Positions 1,974 through 58,731 of a stretch of 64,000 nt of DNA are shown one piece after another (position 1 is the stretch's first letter; every line of letters begins with the position of its first letter). Below the pieces are notes generated by a model that did not search any database, was not told the origin of the DNA, and worked only from the letters and a program-made list of their open reading frames with translations. Where the stretch lies: contig NC_091475.1 of the NCBI RefSeq assembly GCF_036971445.1, positions 157,418,001 to 157,482,000 of the forward strand. Reading direction: 5' to 3'. The translations under genes and the position numbers were made by a program. This stretch comes from Narcine bancroftii (lineage: Eukaryota).

Positions 1974-2266
1974 TGTGGTGGTACACCACAGGCCTACTGC
2001 AGGGGGAAACCTCTGTACCTGTAGGAGTGTAAGGGGACAGGACAAAACCTGACTGGCTGTCAATCAGTCGGCCTGAATGGATCAAGCCCCACCCGGTCAG
2101 GTGTCAATCACCCTCTGGGATATAAGCCTGTGCCGGCATCCTGAGGCCTCACTCAGAATTGCTGCAGCCCACAGCCAGCCTGGCTCTGTGGAAGTCTTTG
2201 TGGATTAAAGCCTGTTGTATAGTCTTTACCTTGTCTGTGTCTGATTTTGTCTATCAGCACACCACA
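1974..2266 (+). repeat. 5' LTR (TATA-like gatataag ~2119, ATTAAA 2204-2209)
   Basis: Direct repeat of 6455-6739; begins tgtgg, ends ccaca. Confidence 0.92.
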
Positions 2267-2297
2267 ATTTAATCCACAAAATTTTCCCACAGCTGCC

Positions 2298-6454: not shown

Positions 6455-6739
6455 TGTAGAGGTACAACACTGGCCTACTGCAGGGGGAAACCTCTGTACC
6501 TGCAGGAGTGTAAGGACAACACCTGAATGGCTGTCAATCAGTTGGCCTGAATGGATCAAGCCCCACCCAGTCGGGTGTCAATCACCCTCCAGGATATAAG
6601 CCTGCGCCGGCCTCCCGAGGCCTCACTCAGAGTTACTGCAGCCACAGCCAGCTTGTCTCTGTGGAAGTCTTTGTGGATTAAAGCCTGTTGTACAGTCTTT
6701 ACCTTGTGTGTGTCTGATTCTGTCTAACAGCACACCACA
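6455..6739 (+). repeat. 3' LTR
   Basis: Follows the polypurine tract; direct repeat of 1974-2266. Confidence 0.92.
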
Positions 6740-12169: not shown

Positions 12170-13350
12170 ACCCCAGAAACCTCACATAACTCAAGCTCCC
12201 ACCATTTAAATCACTTTTGTAATGTTATCTACATTCTTCTCAAAATCTTGACATTTTAAAAAGTGTAATGCCAAGAACCGAAAACCGTACTTAAATTAGG
12301 ACGGAACCAGCGTTTTACAAAAGTTCATCAAGATTTTCTTCCTCCATTACTCTGTCACTAAATAATCCAGGATCCCACCGGTTTTCATTCAAACCACTCT
12401 CTTACCTGCTCTTCGATTTTTCCATGATATCCAAGTCTCTCAGTTCTTGTGCATCTTGGAATTAAGTGCTCTGGTTAGTATTGTCTTTTCTCCATTCTTC
12501 CTACAATTCTTAGCACTGTTTATGTGTCACTGTCCACACTTTTTGAAGTCATTTAATATTCCTACAGTTCACTGCACCTCAGCATTTTATATAGCCTGTA
12601 AATTTGGAAATCACATTCTATAGACCCAAGTCCAAACAAATCATTTAAGATATAGTAAGGACAGTGGGTACTAGTACTAACCCCTGTGGAACTTCTGTGC
12701 ACATTTCTCTGCAGTCAGGAAAACAATCTTCCATTGCTTCTCTTTCCTGTTAATTTGACAGAAGATTTCCATAATGCTACAGGCCCTTTCATTTCATAAC
12801 CTTCATTCTTGACTACATGTTTGTTATGTAGTATGTTACCAAATGAATTTTAGAAGTCCATACCTCATTAACTCTTGTCATTGCTTCAATCTAGTTAGAT
12901 GTGACACGTTTAACAATTCCCACTGGCTTTCTATAACTAAGCCATATTTGTCATTTTTATAAGATTTTCCCAAACACCAAGGTTACACTGACTGATCTAC
13001 AGTTGCTAGATTTATCCCTGATATTTTTTTCTTTGAATAAATGTGTAACATTTACAGTTTTCCAGTGTTCAGGTGTCACTTCTAAATCTATAGATGTTTG
13101 GAAAATTATGTTGCAACTCGCAATTTCCCCATAAGTTAGGATAAATCCATGTGGGCCTTGAAATTTATTCACTTTAATTATAGCTAGTCTCTCTAATACC
13201 ATTACTTCTTGTGTACTGCATTCAAGAATGTTTTCCCTTGCTGAGACACCAGAAAGAGGCAAAAAACTAATTTATCATATTAGCCACTCACTCCACCTGC
13301 ATGAGTAAATGGCCCTTTTGATTTCTGATCAGTCCCACTTTTCCTCCAAT
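12170..13350 (-). mobile_element. CR1-type LINE, old decayed RT region
   Basis: Minus ORF 12957..13262: KVNKFQGPHG..PEHWKTVNVTHLFK..SNCRSVSVTLVFGKIL; boundaries approximate. Confidence 0.7.
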
Positions 13351-23298: not shown

Positions 23299-23895
23299 TT
23301 CTTCTTTCTTTGGCTTGGCTTCGCGGACGAAGATTTATGGAGGGGGTAAGAGTCCACGTCAGCTGCAGGCTCGTTTGTGGCTGACAAGTCCGATGCGGGA
23401 CAGGCAGACATGGTTGCAGTGGCTGCAGGGGAAAAATGGTTGGTTGGGGTTGGGTGTTGGGTTTTTCCTCCTTTGCCTTTTGTCAGTGAGGTGGGCTCTG
23501 CGGTCTTCTTCAAAGGAGGTTGCTGCCCGCCAAACTGTGAGGCGCCAAGATGCACGGTTTGAGGCGATATCAGCCCACTGGCGGTGGTCAATGTGGCAGG
23601 CACCAAGAGATTTCTTTAGGCAGTCCTTGTACCTTTTTTTTGGTGCACTCTGTCACGGTGGCCAGTGGAGAGCTCGCCATATAACACGATCTTGGGAAGG
23701 CGATGGTCCTCCATTCTGGAGACGTGACCCACCCAGCGCAGCTGGATCTTCAGCAGCGTGGACTCGATGCTGTCGACCTCTGCCATCTCGAGTACTTCGA
23801 CGTTAGGGATGAAAGCGCTCCAATGGATGTTTTGGATGGAGCGGAGACAACGCTGGTGGAAGCGTTCTAGGAGCCGTAGGTGATGCCGGTAGAGG
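23299..23895 (-). mobile_element. RTE LINE, 5'-truncated
   Basis: Near-identical to 36891-37589 and 43560-44160. Confidence 0.9.
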
Positions 23896-36890: not shown

Positions 36891-37589
36891 CTTTTCTTTG
36901 GCTTGGCTTCGCGGACGAAGATTTATGGAGGGGGTAAAAAGTCCACGTCAGCTGCAGGCTCGTTTGTGGCTGACAAGTCCGATGCGGGACAGGCAGACAC
37001 GATTGCAGCGGTTGCAGGGGAAAATTGGTTGGTTGGGGTTGGGTGTTGGGTTTTTCCTCCTTTGCCTTTTGTCAGTGAGGTGGGCTCTGCGGTCTTCTTC
37101 AAAGGAGGTTGCTGCCCGCCAAACTGTGAGGCGCCAAGATGCACGGTTTGAGGCGTTATCAGCCCACTGGCGGTGGTCAATGTGGCAGGCACCAAGAGAT
37201 TTCTTTAGGCAGTCCTTGTACCTTTTCTTTGGTGCACCTCTGTCACGGTGGCCAGTGGAGAGCTCACCATATAACAGGATCTTGGGAAGGCGATGGTCCT
37301 CCATTCTGGAGACGTGACCCATCCAGCGCAGCTGGATCTTCAGCAGCGTGGACTCGATGCTGTCGACCTCTGCCATCTCGAGTACTTCGACGTTAGGGAT
37401 GAAAGCGCTCCAATGGATGTTGAGGTTGGAGCGGAGACAACGCTGGTGGAAGCGTTCTAGGAGCCGTAGGTGGTGCCGGTAGAGGACCCATGATTCGGAG
37501 CCGAACAGGAGTGTGGGTATGACAACGGCTCTGTATACGCTTATCTTTGTGAGGTTTTTCAGTTGGTTGTTTTTCCAGACTCTTTTGTG
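36891..37589 (-). mobile_element. RTE LINE, 5'-truncated, open frame
   Basis: ORF 36948..37595: VYRAVVIPTLLFGSESW..QLRWMGHVSRMEDHRLPK..FPCNRCNRVCLSRIGLVSHKRAC. Confidence 0.92.
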
Positions 37590-39650: not shown

Positions 39651-40306
39651 CATGCTACTCGTAGGGGACACCCAACTCAAAAGGATGCCAAAATTACTTC
39701 AGGGTGAAAGTGTTCTTTAACATCATTGCCTTTGTTATCAAAGGCCTTCACATCGCTTTTCTGCAGTCAGGGACATCTGTGGACTTTTTGAATTTTCTGT
39801 GACACTTTAGCCAGTTTAGATGAGAATGAGTTGCTACTAAAAGCTAATCAGTTTTAGCTGCGATACCCAAGACATATTTCAAGTGACACTCAGAGTGAAG
39901 TGTATCTTCTTGAAAGAAGTTTTGATGTGAATTTCAAACTCGATGCCATATTACCAAAGACATTTTATGGTCAAATTTTGAACTTGAGAATGGGCAATAT
40001 TTTCCCAAATGTCCTCATCGTGTGGTGCATTTTTCAGTCATTGCCAGCACAACTGTGGCCTCTAATGAGACAAATTAAGTCATACTTTTGATCACAATGG
40101 TACAAGAAAGTTTGAATGGATCAGCAATTTTGAACATCAACAGTGACAATACAAAGTTGCTTGATTTTCCTGATGTAATTGATGAATTTGTCTAAAGAAA
40201 AGCACCCAAACGATTTCTGAATGTGAAGAAGTGTTGACCATTTCTGATCTGAAATTCCAAAATCATGAATGTACCATTGCATTTACTATTTCTTACTACA
40301 GTACTG

Positions 40307-41181
40307 TTCTTTGTCTTGGCTTTGAGGATGAAGATTTATGGAGGGGTAATGTCCACGTCAGCTGCAGGCTCGTTTGTGGCTGACAAGTCCGATGCGGGAC
40401 AGGCAGACACGGTTGCAGCGGTTGCAAGGGAAAATGGGTGGGTTGGGATTGGGTGTTGGGTTTTTTCTCCTTTGTCTTTTGTCAGTGAGGTGGGGTCTGC
40501 GGTCTTCTTCAAAGGAGGTTGCTGCCCGCCGAACTGTGAGGCGTCAAGATGCACGGTTTGAGGCGAGATCAGCCCACTGACGGTGGTCAATGTGGCAGGC
40601 ACCAAGAGATTTCTTTAGGCAGTCCTTGTACCTCTTCTTTGGTACACCTCTGTCACGGTGGCCAGTGGAGAGCTCGCCATATAACACAATCTTGGGAAGG
40701 CGATGGTCCTCCATTCTGGAGACGTGACCTACCCAGCGCAGTTGGATCTTCAGCAGCGTGGATTCGATGCTGTCGGTCTCTGCCATCTCGAGTACTTCGA
40801 TGTTAGGGATGAAGTCGCTCCAATGAATGTTGAGGATGGAGTGGAGACAACGCTGGTGGAAGCGTTCTAGGAGCTGTAGGTGATGCCGGTAGAGGACCCA
40901 TGTTTCGGAGCCGAACAGGAGTGTGGGTATGACAACGGCTCTGTATACGCTAATCTTTGTGAGGTTTTTCAGTTGGTTGTTTTTCCAGACTCTTTTGTGT
41001 AGTCTTCCAAAGGCGCTATTTGCCTTGGTGAGTCTGTTGTCTATCTCGTTGTCGATCCTTGCATCTGATGAGATGGTGCAGCCGAGATAGGTAAAGTGGT
41101 TGACCGTTTTGAGTTTTGTGTGCCTGATGGAGATGTGGGGGGCTGGTAGTCACGGTGGGGCGCTGGCTGATGGAGGACCTC
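40307..41181 (-). mobile_element. RTE LINE, 5'-truncated
   Basis: ORF 40544..40786; nucleotide similarity to 43560-44450. Confidence 0.9.
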
Positions 41182-43559: not shown

Positions 43560-44936
43560 TTCTTTCTTTGGCTTGGCTTCGCGGATGAAGATTTATGGAG
43601 GGGTATGTCCACGTCTGCTGCAGGCTCGTTGGTGACTGACAAGTCCGATGTGGGACAGGCAGGCATGGTTGCAGCGGTTGCAAGGGAAAATTGGTTGGTT
43701 GGGGTTGGGTGTTGGGTTTTTCCTCCTTTGTCTTTTGTCAGTGAGGTGGGCTCTGCGGTCTTCTTCAAAGGAGGTTGCTGCCCGCCGAACTGTGAGGTGC
43801 CAAGATGCACGGTTTGAGGCGATATCAGCCCACTGGCGGTGGTCAATGTGGCAGGCACCAAGAGATTTCTTTAAGCAGTCCTTGTACCTCTTCTTTGGTG
43901 CACCTCTGTCTCGGTGGCCAGTGGAGAGCTCGCCATATAGCACGATCTTGGGAAGGCGATGGTCCTCCATTCTGGAGATATGACCCACCCAGCGCAGTTG
44001 GGTCTTCAGCAGCGTGGATTCAATGCTTGCGGACTCTGCCAGCTCGAGTACTTCGATGTTGGTGATGAAGTCATTCCAATGAATGTTGAGGATGGAGCGG
44101 AGACAGCGCTGATGAAAGCATTCTAGGAGCCGTAGGTGATGCCGGTAGAGGACCCATGATTCGGAGCCGAACAGGAGCGTGGGTATGACAACGGCTCTGT
44201 ACACGCTGATCTTTGTGTGTTTCTTCAGGTGGTTGTTTTTCCAGACTCTTTTGTGTAGTCTTCCAAAGGTGCTATTTACCTTGGCGAGTCTGTTGTCTAT
44301 CTCTTTGTCGATCCTTGCATCCGATGAAATGGTGCAGCCGAGGTAGGTAAACTGGTTGACCATTTTGAGTTCAGTGTGCCTGATGGAGATGTGGGGGGGG
44401 AGGGGGCTGGTGGTCATGGTGGGGAGCTGGCTGATGGAGGACCTCAGTTTTCTTCAGGCTGACTTCCAGGCCAAACATTTTGGCAGTTTCCGCAAAATAG
44501 GATGTCATGCACTGGCGAGCTGGCTCTGAATGGGCAACTAAAGTGGCATCGTCTGCAAAGAGTAGTTCACGGACAAGTTGCTCTTGTGTCTTGGTGTGAG
44601 TTTGCAGACGCCTCAGTTGAAGAGACTGCCATCTTTGCGGTACCAGATGTAAACACCGTCTTCATTGTTGAGGTCTTTATTGGTTTGTTTCAGCATCATG
44701 CTGAAGAAGATAGTAAAGAGGATTGGTGCGAGGACGCAGCCTTGCTTCACGCCATTGTCAATGGAGAAGGGTTCGAAGAGCTCATTGCTGTATCTGACCC
44801 GACCTTGTTGGTTTTCGTGCAGTTGTATAACCATGATGAGGAACTTGGGAGGGCATCCGAGGTGCTCTAGTATTTGCCAAAGGCCTTTCCTGCTCACGGT
44901 GTCAAAGGCTTTGGTGAGGTCAACAAAGGTGATGTA
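43560..44936 (-). mobile_element. RTE LINE, longest copy (RT plus C-terminus)
   Basis: ORFs 44613..44993 (FVDLTKAFDTVSR..GVKQGCVLAPILF) and 43593..44417 (FTYLG..C-terminal CxxC..H..C). Confidence 0.93.
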
Positions 44937-49535: not shown

Positions 49536-50530
49536 GACCTCATCCAATTATTTTACGTATATAGTTGCCTGCATGCACACCCACACACGCTACAATATCC
49601 CCCTTATCATGGATTCCACTCACACTCTGATTCCTAGGAACATACCTTCAGTGTCGAGAATAGCAAATTCTAATGCCAGAGTTTCAATAAATTTTGATGT
49701 TCTTGATCTTGACAAATCCTTAATTTTAATTTTTTTCTTCCAGGTAATAAAGACATCTTTGCTAGTGTATGATAGTTTATCACCAACCTGCCTGCGACTC
49801 TGAATATATTTTGTACAGTGATGTCAGTTGCCTCACACTTATAATTATGTTGTAGGCCACAAATACAATCCTTTAATAAAAATGTCATCACATTGTTCAC
49901 AAATAGCTATAAGTTGTTATCTATTCTAATGGTTGAAATTATGAATGTTGACCAGGATAATAGAAATATATCCTTTTATTTAAAAAAAAATGCCATGGAC
50001 ACTTTTATGTTAATCTGAACAGTTAAATCATTTTTTAATTTTCAGTAAAAATTCATCACATGAAACAATACATTTGTCCCTCAGTACATGGTTCAATGTC
50101 TGATGTTGAGGTTGAACCTGCTTTAATGCCAATGGAACTAACAACAATAATGAAATAATTCACTTTGTTAATATGTGATGACATTTTTATTAAAGGATTG
50201 TATTTGTGGCCTACAAAATAATTATAAGTGTGAGGCAACTGACATCACTGTACAAAATATATTCAGAGTCGCAGGCAGGTTGGTGATAAACTATCATACA
50301 CTAGCAAAGATGTCTTTATTACCTGGAAGAAAAAAATTAAAATTAAGGATTTGTCAAGATCAAGAACATCAAAATTTATTGAAACTCTGGCATTAGAATT
50401 TGCTATTCTCGACACTGAAGGTATGTTCCTAGGAATCAGTGTGTTAGTGGAATCCATGATAAGGGGGATATTGTAGCGTGTGTGCGTCTGGATGCAGGCA
50501 ACTATATATGTAAAATAATTGGATGAGGTC
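49536..50530. repeat. Long inverted repeat: 358-bp arms (49536-49893, 50173-50530), 279-bp spacer
   Basis: Direct comparison, 7 mismatches by hand count; mirror-image ORFs in the track (49670..49900 - vs 50175..50396 +). Confidence 0.95.
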
Positions 50531-53900: not shown

Positions 53901-54321
53901 GAGGATAGTGAATAGAAGTTTGGAGCAGATTTGTCAACAATTAACTGCAGAAGCTCTTGCTGTCTCATATCATTCTTGGATTGGGACATTCGCTTAGTGA
54001 GTATGAATTATTGTGTTGTTCATGTTCATATTTTTGTTTTATTTAGCTTCTGTCAGTAATTTATTAGTCATGAATGTTACATTGTAATGTTCATCTGTGC
54101 CTGAAGTAGATTAATTTGGAATGTGGTTTAAAGCACAAACAGGGACTTATAGAGGATTCATCAGAGGGACCCCTTCCACTTGCCAAGACCAGTAACATAG
54201 GCCTATCATTACCCAGGTAGGCTTGACCACCACAAAGAAGATCTTCTTGTACAATCTATAATTGGCTTGACAAGGAAGAATACTGTCTAAGCTAAAATAG
54301 TCTTGTAGAGTTAAGGTACGC

Positions 54322-54592
54322 TGTGGTCAGCAAACAAACACAAAACTCGAGAAGACTACTACAGGCTTTAATTTTAAAGTTAAACACTGGGTGAACACCA
54401 GGTCTGTGTAGCTTCTGTTTCCACGTGCCCGACTGATTTAGGAAGGGGCTGGCTTGAGTCTTTATATGGCCCAGTGATTGATAGTCAGAATGGTGGAGCC
54501 AGGCTCCCAGGTTGTCTATCTGAAGGTACAGTGGTTGCCCCCCTGCAGTAGGCCGGTGGGAGTGCGGCCAGTGTCTTGGTTGTATCACCACA
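54322..54592 (-). mobile_element. Solo LTR related to the 1974-2266 LTR
   Basis: Reverse complement starts tgtggtgatac..ggcctactgcagggggg..ctgtacct, has atataaag and attaaagcctgt, ends ccaca; no clear TSD. Confidence 0.8.
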
Positions 54593-54980: not shown

Positions 54981-57900
54981 GAACAATTAAATCACCTTTA
55001 AGTTTTGGGCCACGGACAAGGTAATACACACAGATAAACTTGACACCGATGCTAAGGATCCAGAGGCCTCAGTCAAATTTGACCAATGGGTGCACTGCCT
55101 CAATGCGTTTATGCAGCGCAATGATGTGTGAAGTGAAAAAAACAAATAGGATCTGCTCTTTGCTCAGGTTAGCCACCAGGTCTTTCAAACAATAAGAGAC
55201 TGTCCTACTCACACTCCTACAATGGTCTTCCTGCAGACAGTACCAGGCCCCAACAAACATGATCTATACCTGATTTCTCCTGGGCAGTTGTAAACAGGCA
55301 CCCAGTGAGTTCGTTGACGAATACATGTGGGTGCTGTGGGAGCTGGGGCGAGCCTGCAACTGACGAGAAGTCTCAGCAACTGCCCACCTTGAAGCCCTAA
55401 TAGGTGACGTGTGTGTGGCTGGATTCAGGTCTGATTAGATCAGACAGAGACTGCTTGAAAAGGGTGATCGGAGCCTGCTAGAGGTCATGGAATTGGCGAA
55501 ATTACTCAAGATATCACAATGGGACGGTGAAGCGTTCTCCTTGGGCAATGTGGATGCCACATGGGGAATGTGGACACTGGCATCTTGGGACACGAGGTCT
55601 ACATCACCGCCGCCCCCATTGAGCACCCAAAATACTACATCTGTAGACATGGGAAACATCCCCAGAAGAGCTTCCCGCCCTGAAACGTGACGTATTCCAC
55701 CTGCAGGAAGAAGGGACACTACACAAAGGTATGTAGGTTCCAACTTTACATCATCAATGCCACATGGGGCCTCCAGCCCCCGCCATCTTGGACCACACCA
55801 CTTCCGGATCCACCTTCGGCATCACTTCTGGTCGCAGGCAACGACTCAGCGGGTCCCTGGGGATGGCAAGCTGGGGTGCCATCACTTCTGGTGCCACGTC
55901 TGGCAATGGAAGACAGCACAGCGTGCATGACATGGGGGCCACAATCTTGCCTGGCATCCATGAATCAGTACAGCAATGACTTGGACAGCAATCAGATGCT
56001 GGCCTCCATTGTCCTCAATCAAGACACCCCACATCAATTGGCCAAGGCCATTATGACTGTCAAGATAAATGGCCACACCATGAACAGCTTACTCAACACA
56101 GGAAGCACTTAGAGCTTCGTTCACCAGGGATCTGTACAACACTACTCCCTTGGGGTAACCCCACCAAACTCTTAAGCCATCCACCCCCTCCGAACACTAC
56201 CTGCGGCCTCTCTACCCTCTGGGTCCCAATGCTGCACCTGTTCGAGAACCTCACCCCCGGCTGCAAGCCTGTCGCCACCAAGTGCAGGCAGTATAGCCCT
56301 GGGAACAGAGCATTTATCAAAGCAGGTCAAACGTCTTCTGGCAGAGGGGATCATAGAGCCCAGTACCAGTCCCTGGAGAGGCCAAGTAGTGGTTGGAAAG
56401 GGTGGGGAAAAATGCCATGTGGTCATTGATTATAGTCAGACTATAAAATGCTTCACCCAGCTGGACGCCTATCTACTTCCCTGCATCGCCGACATAGTAA
56501 ATGAGATCGCCCAGTACTGGGTCTTCTCAACCATTGACCTTGTTGGCATGCAATCAACTGCCCATCCAGCCAGAGGACAGCCAATACACTGGCTTCAAGG
56601 CAGAAGTCATCTCTACCACTTTCTCAGTGTCCCTTTTGGAGTCGCCAATGGGATCTCTGTCTTTCAGAGGGAGATGGACCGCATAGTGATGTCCATGGAC
56701 TTGAGGCCACATTTCCCTCCCTGGACAACGTGATCATCTGCAGCCATGACTAGCAGGACCATGATGCCAACCTCCACAATTTTCTCCAGCTGGCCAAAAG
56801 CCTCAATCTGACCTATAACCAAAAGAAGTGCATCTTTAACAGTTCAAGGCTGGCCATCCTGGATTGCGTGTTGGAGAATGGCGTCATTGGGCCAGACCCA
56901 GACCACATGTACCCCCTGTTGAAACTCCCATTACCCCAGACCCTCAAGACTCTGTAAAGGTTTTTCTTATTATGCCCAGTGGGTCCCCAATTACGTGGAT
57001 GAAGCCTGCCCCCTGGTGAAATTGGCCACCTTCCTCCTGTTGGCAGAAGTCCAAACAGCATTCACACACATCAAGGATGACATCGCCAAGGTGGAGATGC
57101 ATGCTGTAGATGAATCCATCTCCTTCCATGTGGAGAGTGATGCATCTGACTTTGCCCTGGCTGCCATGCTCAACCAGGTGGTCAGGCCCATGGCATTCTT
57201 CTCCCGAACCCTCCAGGGTCCTGAACCGGCATTCAGCCATTGAAAAGGAGGCCCAAGCTATAGTCGAAGCTGTGCGCTACTGAAGGCTCTATTTTGCTGG
57301 AAAACTGTTCACCTTGCTGAATGACCAATGTACAGTTGCTTTTATGTTTAATAACAAACAGCGGGGAAAAATCAAGAAAGTCAAGATCTGAGGAGGAGAA
57401 TTGAACTGTCCACCTACAACTACAAGATCTTGTACTGGCCCAGGAAGCTCAACGAGCCTCCTGATGCACTGTCTCGGGGGACATGTGCCAATGCACAGTT
57501 GAACCACCTCCAAGCCCTTCACATCAACTTCTGTCTACCCAGCATCACCAGGCATTACCACTTCGTCAGAGCCCATAACCCCCCCTACTCTGTTGAAGAC
57601 ATCAGGGAGTTGACATGGAACTGCCCAGTCTGCATTGAGTGTAAACTCCAATTCTACTGGCCGGACAAAACTCACCTCATCAAAGCCATCCACCCCCTTC
57701 AAGTGGCTGAGCATGGACTTTAAGGGACCCCTCCTGTTCACAAATAGCAATGAGTATTTCCTCAACATAGATGAGTACTCCCATTTCCCCTTTGCCATCC
57801 CCTACTCGGACATGACCACGGCCACCATCATAAAGGCACTGTGTGGCATCTTCGCTCTGTTTGGATACCCCTGCTACATTCATAGCAACTGGGGATTCTC

Positions 57901-58731
57901 ATTCATGAGCGAGGAGATGTGCCAGTACCTGTTGGCCAAGGGCATAGCCATGAGCAGGACCATGGGCTATAACCCCTGAGGGTTATGGACAGGTAGAAAG
58001 GGAGAATGTCACTGTCTGGAGGGAAGTCCTCCAAGTCCTAAAATTGAAAGGCCTGTCCACTTCCCGGTGGCAAGACGTCCTTCTTGAGGTGCTCCATGCT
58101 ACCAGGTCTCTCATCTGCACTGCTACGAATGCCACACCACATGAAAGGCTCTTTTCCTTCCCCAGGAAGTTGGCATCGGGAACAGCATTGCCACCCTGGC
58201 TGAACCCTGGGCCCATCCTGTTCCAGAGGCATGTCATTTACCACAAGACTGACACCCTGGTTGAGAAGTTACACTTCCTCCACACCAACCTCCAATACCC
58301 CTACATGGTACCCACTGTACCAACAGCCCCGCCCCCCCCAGCCGCTGGAGGGACCGCCTGTCACACAAGACACTGCCCAGGAATCAGCAACTGTGCCTCA
58401 GCAGACCCTGTGATGGTTGGAGCAATGGACGAGACTGCTGGACAGGCTAAATCTGTAATGAACATTGTACCACATCACCCCTGCCGGACTTTGTTTTAAA
58501 AGAAGGGGTGAATGTGGGTACTATCACTGTGTGTTACCACTATGTATATTGTATGTAGGTGCTTATGGGCTGGCCTGCCCCTGATATCACCATAAAGGCT
58601 GTTATGCCCAAACCTCTCCCTCAGTACCTGCCTTGGAACCGGGCCAGTAACAAGTAAGATGTGCTGACATCTAAAAGTGATTAAAGCCTATTAATCACAG
58701 ATCCTTGTCTAATGTGGTTGGTAGTACACTA
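54981..58731 (+). mobile_element. Decayed Ty3/Gypsy element, same lineage as 1974-6739; 5' LTR mostly lost
   Basis: gag (ACG)DKVIHTDKLD..KFDQW at 55012; CSTCRKKGHYTKVC-like knuckle; LLNTGST protease; VIDYSQTIK..LDAYLL RT; VESDASDFAL RNase H; WLSMDFKGP..GYNP..PGPILF IN; PPT aagaaggggtgaa then 3' LTR 58513-~58731. Confidence 0.88.

Follow-up and report, generated by a model that had tools for sequence, protein, structure and literature searches.

In the window, by which we mean the whole stretch of 64,000 nucleotides of Narcine bancroftii DNA analysed here, a short leader segment in front of the gag start of a Ty3/Gypsy element is complementary to part of the element's own LTR. What does such a pairing serve? 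An initial annotation had pointed out that this second Gypsy element keeps the LTR-leader pairing of element 1, a related element in the same window, with different letters. The observation is true and extends to about 20 families, and the leader segment (54987-55000) is the element's primer binding site (PBS), a function which the initial annotation had left unnamed. To our knowledge, self-priming has been proven only for Tf1, and it has otherwise been taken as a hallmark of the Tf1/sushi chromoviruses and of a small number of plant lineages. For the element described here and its relatives, self-priming of reverse transcription in some form is very probable.

The window copy and its parts

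Positions 54983-58728 hold a decayed copy of a Ty3/Gypsy element (Table 1), whose gag-pol lies in at least seven segments across all three frames and carries at least 13 stops. The letters at 54987-55000 are TTAAATCACCTTTA, and their reverse complement is identical to 58672-58685 at 12 of 14 positions. Coordinates and letters had been given correctly in the initial annotation (12/14 pairing, ACG at 55012, hairpin arms at 58677-58698). For a single copy 12/14 is modest, a scan of both strands having found a second 12/14 place in the window at 12219 on the minus strand. Matches to sister copies begin at 54983; hence 54983-55000 belongs to the element as had been supposed, whereas 54981-54982 are flank.

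Of its 5' LTR the window copy retains only the last three bases: the DNA upstream scored 82 against the 3' LTR, equal to the shuffle mean of 82, and had no match in any retrieved locus. Since this LTR is lost, the window copy is itself unable to form the pairing between PBS and LTR. The calculated duplex energy of PBS and R segment is -6.5 kcal/mol with the window letters and -15.3 kcal/mol in sister copy L004.

Elsewhere in the window, 49536-49893 and 50173-50530 form an inverted repeat of 358 nt, 98% complementary, with 279 nt between the arms. Positions 1-222, 23305-23895, 36893-37485, 40306-40895 and 43563-44151 are young copies (93-97%) of one interspersed repeat.

Table 1. Positions of the element under study and of related elements in the window
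Feature	Position	Strand	Basis or remark
Last 3 bases (ACA) of the lost 5' LTR	54983..54985	+	Sister matches start here; whole LTR upstream in sisters
Spacer of one base, LTR end to PBS	54986	+	A in 18/20 families
PBS, against own R segment	54987..55000	+	12/14 here; 14/14 in 6/26 sisters
gag start codon position, mutated here	55012..55014	+	Standard start in 21/25 scorable sister copies
Decayed gag-pol: gag, zinc-knuckle region, protease, RT, RNase H, integrase	55012..58307	+	tblastn with P0011; translation
Polypurine tract	58498..58512	+	Sequence; tract also precedes 3' LTRs of sister copies
3' LTR (TGT...ACA), small deletions relative to sister copies	58513..58728	+	
TATA-like box (predicted)	58591..58598	+	Equal distance to pairing segment in 19/34 family LTRs
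Initiator-like TCAGT, predicted transcription start 63 nt before 3' end of pairing segment	58621..58625	+	28/34 family LTRs
R segment complementary to PBS, ending in ATTAAA; 3' end is predicted primer end	58672..58685	+	
Local 8-bp hairpin spanning ATTAAA, family-specific	58677..58698	+	Fold
Element 1 (related family), 5' LTR	1974..2266	+	Pairing segment 2197-2209
Element 1, PBS	2268..2280	+	13/13 complementary to 2197-2209
Element 1, 3' LTR	6455..6739	+	
Solo LTR, third family	54315..54592	-	Full copies of third family pair 15/15, third sequence

Pairing in sister copies and across families

From 29 non-window loci of the family, one leaderless copy, one with a rearranged LTR and one duplicate were removed, leaving 26 sister copies with 5' LTR and leader. 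Pairing reached at least 12/14 in 17 of the 26, and was complete (14/14) in six. At the two positions where the window copy is mismatched, the pairing base is present in 26/26 and 23/26 sister copies. Both mismatches, which the initial annotation had proposed to check against a family consensus, are private decay of the window copy. Every intact copy shows LTR-CA, one base and the pairing segment, in that order. In one subfamily (L299, L300, L320 and L321), one base of the LTR segment and the matching PBS base are changed together, a compensatory change within the family.

Four families in the ray genome pair, using four different sequences: besides the window family, that of element 1 (13/13), that of the solo LTR at 54315-54592 (15/15), and a young family (15/15 in 9 of 10 copies). 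Many copies of the young family are 99-100% identical and carry identical LTRs, indicating recent movement. The protein P0011, whose source label is Narcine bancroftii, is 99-100% identical to copies in the ray genome. Among metagenome relatives (80 loci, 30 with a gag start and 28 testable, a score of at least 10 counting as a pass), pairing was detected in 23 of the 28, representing about 16 families, and was lacking in five; with random anchors 3 of 300 passed, two of these three being on real leaders. The pairing is 11-19 bp long, with different letters, in the three further ray families and the 23 metagenome relatives. Relatives of the clade occur in sharks, rays, a cnidarian, nematodes, a tunicate and insects.

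The order LTR-CA, one nucleotide, pairing was found in all 20 families compared, and in none of them does the PBS start with TGG, the complement of tRNA CCA by which tRNA-primed elements are recognised. In retroviral reverse transcription the 3' end of the primer determines where U5, and with it the LTR, ends. Since the pairing segment lies one base behind the LTR end, it is the PBS. Given 20 differing PBS sequences, a PBS complementary to an internal fragment of one host tRNA seems unlikely.

Covariation was followed in one copy from each of the 20 families, the counts taking no account of kinship. At helix positions 1-3 there are T-A pairs with hardly any variation, while two to four Watson-Crick pair types occur at positions 6-9 and 11-13. 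Over positions 5-13, a PBS is paired at 8.5 of 9 positions on average with the LTR of its own family and at 4.9 with the LTRs of other families, averages which include one mislocated row (L287, true pairing 15/15); at least eight of these positions are paired in 18/20 own-LTR and 12/380 cross-family combinations. The varied pair types and the preference for the own LTR support the proposal of the initial annotation that the change is compensatory and was under selection. The end of the partner segment lies 34-67 nt upstream of that of the LTR. At helix position 10, 19 of the 20 families have a C-G pair, and the bases behind the partner segment are mostly GCC or ACC; both may set the geometry of the cut.

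RNA folding and the predicted transcription start

Five real single copies were folded from the predicted transcription start. The PBS helix was dominant, with pair probabilities mostly between 0.85 and 1.0, and the fold z was -2.1 to -3.5 in four copies and -0.16 for the leader of the young family. An inner R-U5 helix was predicted in four of the five folds and an outer one was variable. The local hairpin gtgatta/taatcac that had been noticed in the LTR is real, with an 8-bp stem and -5.8 kcal/mol, but specific to the window family, being absent in that register from the other three ray families. Its suggested competition with the leader pairing is weakly supported: when the 5' LTR and leader were folded for alternative conformations the PBS helix won, and the 3' arm of the hairpin paired with U5 instead. 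The hairpin could arise only at the 3' end of the RNA.

TATA-like and Inr-like motifs lie 84-95 and 52-63 nt, respectively, upstream of the segment end in three families. From such motifs, the distance between predicted start and partner 3' end is 63 nt in the window family (28/34 LTRs), 54-58 nt in family 1, 60-72 nt in family 3, and 52 or 55 nt in the young family. In family 1, a TATA-like word 30 nt before the pairing segment is absent. Together with the ends of the inverted arms described below, the predicted starts suggest a capped primer of 55-63 nt rather than the 11-mer of Tf1.

Fold-back insertions in the ray genome

In the young family, a junction consisting of LTR, PBS and inverted R gave 115 exact matches, against 120 for the normal junction and 0 for reversed controls; the exactness of the junction is inherent in the search motif. 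The 100 places listed among the 115 exact matches yielded 98 loci, and all except one of these fell into three classes.

Class A (27/98) comprises whole palindromes, 20 of the 27 being flanked by an exact 5-bp target duplication. Class B (20/98) has a whole LTR, the PBS and an inverted R, and 15 of the 20 go on into sense internal sequence. The inverted arm of class B ends at 26-56 nt in 16 of 20 loci and never at 57-74, four arms being longer; when one duplicate junction is left out, the arm stops within 56 in 15 of 19 (p 4.5e-7 against a uniform distribution of ends), with 10 at 42-56 and 0 at 57-71. Among 15 class B loci examined, a 3' LTR and an exact duplication were present in 2/2 testable cases. 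Class C (50/98), read on the other strand, consists of U3 and R up to the partner end, a T, and an inverted U5, which measures 19-59 nt in 43 of the 50 and is followed by sense internal sequence in 37. The class C arms are centred on the predicted cut (48), yet exceed 48 in 24/50, so that no sharp cut is mapped; among 20 examined, the 3' LTR and an exact duplication were found in 6/6 testable loci.

In the window family there were 688 candidates; 40 of them were scored, and 11 of these had fold-back junctions. Of the exact motif matches, 3 of 15 were fold-backs. Target duplications are exact at L188 and L203 and 4/5 at L294. The two arms of L188 share six rare alleles, and no other LTR shares more than three with it (0/61); the same test gave a tie at L183 and was empty at L203 and L119. 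Raw identity failed to put the own arm first, which ranked 11 of 61 and 17 of 64. At L323 the inverted R is 62 nt long, against 63 predicted, and is followed by a second U5 starting at the last bases of the partner. Locus L119 reads LTR, spacer, PBS and inverted LTR, the last of these extending from ATTAAA to the beginning of U3, and a 5-bp target duplication encloses the entire structure. In the solo LTR L322, T and about 14 nt of inverted U5 have been inserted behind ATTAAA. Family 1 showed no fold-back among 30 junction loci (L151-L180), despite equally good pairing.

The exact target duplications around both LTR ends indicate that the molecules were whole before integration. All products hold a DNA copy of the PBS running into R; a plus strand that copied a primer made of the element's own R should give just this. 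In two families the predicted starts agree with the arm ends, at the wall of 55-56 and at 62 nt, as would suit a primer consisting of a capped 5' fragment. In class B of the young family, reverse transcriptase could alternatively be stopped near 50-56 by a small hairpin predicted 44-59 nt upstream. Class A can be made by plain DNA snap-back alone, which needs only a copy of the PBS and its complement in the LTR, and no RNA self-primer.

Several single loci depart from these patterns. L357, L397 and L404 are fold-backs whose right side is closed by the final 19-20 bases of U5, which leaves them with normal LTR ends; L404 has flanks that seem duplicated. At L425 (C16:12196134-12197157 of the ray genome), three junction motifs of alternating orientation lie within 200 bases, a repeated fold-back. 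L343 and L353 have a read-through end in common and continue in gag, and a deleted read-through element was possibly itself copied. At L182 the inversion begins after the gag start, and at L208 the LTR is followed by a short inverted R/U5 piece.

Proposed mechanism and alternative explanations

We consider it probable, from sequence, that priming takes a long-primer form, with 54987-55000 as the PBS of a decayed Ty3/Gypsy element and a fragment of its own 5' RNA as primer. Transcription would start about 55-63 nt upstream of the R segment end, as judged from the TATA and Inr motifs, and the R segment, ending in (T/A)AAA, would fold onto the PBS with 13-16 bp. The RNA would then be cut directly behind the R segment, presumably by RNase H in analogy with Tf1; we infer the cut position from the LTR end, class C giving no sharp cut. 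The capped 5' fragment, with only its last 13-16 nt paired, would prime minus-strand DNA, and the remaining 15-25 nt of R, which lie behind the cut, would be used in the first strand transfer. Plus-strand strong-stop DNA would often read past the PBS along the primer to the primer 5' end, producing an end complementary to the LTR and not to the minus strand. Such an end may fold back or re-prime on R, giving palindromic LTR-LTR insertions, or jump into internal sequence, giving deleted elements. The primer could come from the same RNA or from a second packaged copy, and in families with the poly(A) hexamer inside the R segment, the 5' poly(A) signal would in addition be hidden by the helix.

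A broader proposal has in our view an even chance of being right. It states that a widespread animal Gypsy clade outside Tf1/sushi evolved self-priming separately, using as primer its capped 5' fragment in full length, released by an internal cut at the poly(A) signal; that the unpaired primer tail promotes plus-strand read-through to such a degree that about half of the recent PBS junctions in this ray are folded back or mis-transferred; and that the genome records both primer ends, with hundreds of LTR palindromes.

If the geometry were identical to that of Tf1, transcription would start at the first paired base, the primer would measure only 13-16 nt, and every inverted product would arise by snap-back of plus-strand DNA. 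In Tf1 and its relatives the RNA 5' end is the self-primer, according to the accessible parts of PMC7175516 and 10.1101/2022.12.06.519325. Snap-back accounts for the 27 full palindromes, and the starts in the ray families rest on motif prediction. We nevertheless regard this geometry as unlikely in view of the motif positions in three families, the missing TATA-like word in family 1, and the inverted arms, which stop at 56 and, in L323, at 62, matching the motifs in two families.

The 5' LTR poly(A) signal of HIV-1 is masked by the polyA hairpin, and the helix described here might likewise hide a poly(A) signal while some other RNA primes. It can form only at the 5' end, and a canonical AATAAA or ATTAAA lies inside it in 11/20 families. 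The other nine families have no hexamer in the helix, three of them carrying one outside it, so that masking is not the common cause. Nor would masking require that the partner begin, in all families, a single base behind the LTR end, and some other primer would be needed to fit PBS sequences that vary from family to family, all of which makes this reading very unlikely. That the primer is a separate LTR-derived molecule, either a processed small RNA or another transcript's 3' R, and not a piece cut from the folded 5' end, is decidedly improbable. Sequence is blind to cis versus trans and the 3' R holds the same segment, but the pair probabilities of the intramolecular helix are near 1, the gap is kept at 34-67 nt, and read-through stops at the predicted cap, as suits a 5' fragment. 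As sources of the inverted insertions, host rearrangement or integrase-independent insertion of cDNA into existing LTRs through PBS homology would be silent on priming. The single-stranded PBS of Tf1 cDNA does direct integrase-independent insertion (PMC11042837, accessible text), and the inversion of L365 runs on into the host flank and thus arose or was extended after integration. Exact 5-bp duplications in 20/27 palindromes and in 6/6 and 2/2 testable loci of the other classes, with LTR ends on both sides, largely refute this explanation, which we find scarcely credible.

Implications

What is new here is very probable self-priming in a Gypsy clade that has no detectable chromodomain, together with integrated fold-back products. 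If the second geometry, with internal cut, long capped primer and overlap with the poly(A) signal, is true, tRNA-free priming arose or persisted more widely, and self-priming elements would escape control by tRNA fragments. The integrated by-products would make reverse-transcription intermediates readable straight from genomes, and the fold-back products would explain a class of short palindromic repeats. Annotation of the PBS by tRNA matches would mislabel this clade.

Comparison with known systems

The clade has the Ty3/Gypsy domain order of protease, RT, RNase H and integrase, both by Pfam on P0011 and by tblastn order in the window, and the best solved relative is Ty3 Gag-Pol. TG...CA LTRs, a polypurine tract before the 3' LTR and target duplications are all present, the duplication of the window copy being not scorable with its 5' LTR lost. 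No chromo family was detected by Pfam at E<=0.05 in the full-length proteins P0011, P0020 and P0103, a search which diverged chromodomains can escape. A search of viral contigs found no relative, and gag was found in none of the longer proteins searched.

The Mag lineage and other non-chromoviral metazoan Gypsy elements (Cigr-1, MolGy) resemble the ray clade in lacking a chromodomain and in their wide metazoan range. In having two zinc knuckles in gag, the ray clade presumably resembles Mag as well. The accessible parts of PMC6238403 and PMC8556966 hold nothing on PBS or priming, and no matching protein motif was detected in 4/5 and 11/14 of their respective supplementary files. Saci2/lennie of flatworms are likewise compact Gypsy elements with TGT...ACA LTRs, a single gag-pol and a variable PBS (PMC12471100, in part). 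They differ from the ray clade, which makes 5-bp target duplications, in having a tRNA PBS and mostly 4-bp duplications (available portions of PMC4558846 and PMC12471100); the supplement of PMC12471100 has no PBS text. Identity with Saci2/lennie was weighed and left unsupported. Self-priming has been predicted from LTR-PBS complementarity for plant Tcn1 (Ty3/gypsy) and TAR/Houba/Osr-1 (Ty1/copia) in the accessible text of PMC6317226. These belong to other lineages and hosts than the ray clade, Tcn1 grouping with Tf1/sushi and TAR being copia. The literature searched, which included few subscription papers, held no report in its accessible parts of the long-primer geometry or of palindromic insertions, and the Tf1/sushi papers examined, as far as accessible, describe no abundant palindromic insertions.

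With Tf1 and Tf2 of Schizosaccharomyces pombe, Tj1 and Tf1/sushi, the ray clade shares a PBS that lies directly behind the 5' LTR, is complementary to the own LTR and has no tRNA match. The PBS of Tf1 also begins with A behind CA (ATAAC; PMC11042837, accessible part). The clade thus works like Tf1 self-priming, yet it is not placed in Tf1/sushi, because no chromodomain was found and the group is defined as chromoviral, with the self-primer at the RNA 5' end (10.1101/2022.12.06.519325 and PMC4600332, both in part). Tf1/sushi elements are chromoviruses in the accessible text of the former, in contrast to the ray clade without detectable chromodomain. The Tf1/sushi group has a 'pretzel' of three duplexes; in the folds of the ray clade an inner R-U5 helix is likewise predicted, and the outer one varies. 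In Tf1 the RNA's first 11 bases are the primer, freed by RNase H (PMC7175516, accessible portion). From start to primer end, the ray clade would measure 52-63 nt, as predicted from motifs and read-through ends, whereas the primer of Tf1 lies at the very 5' end.
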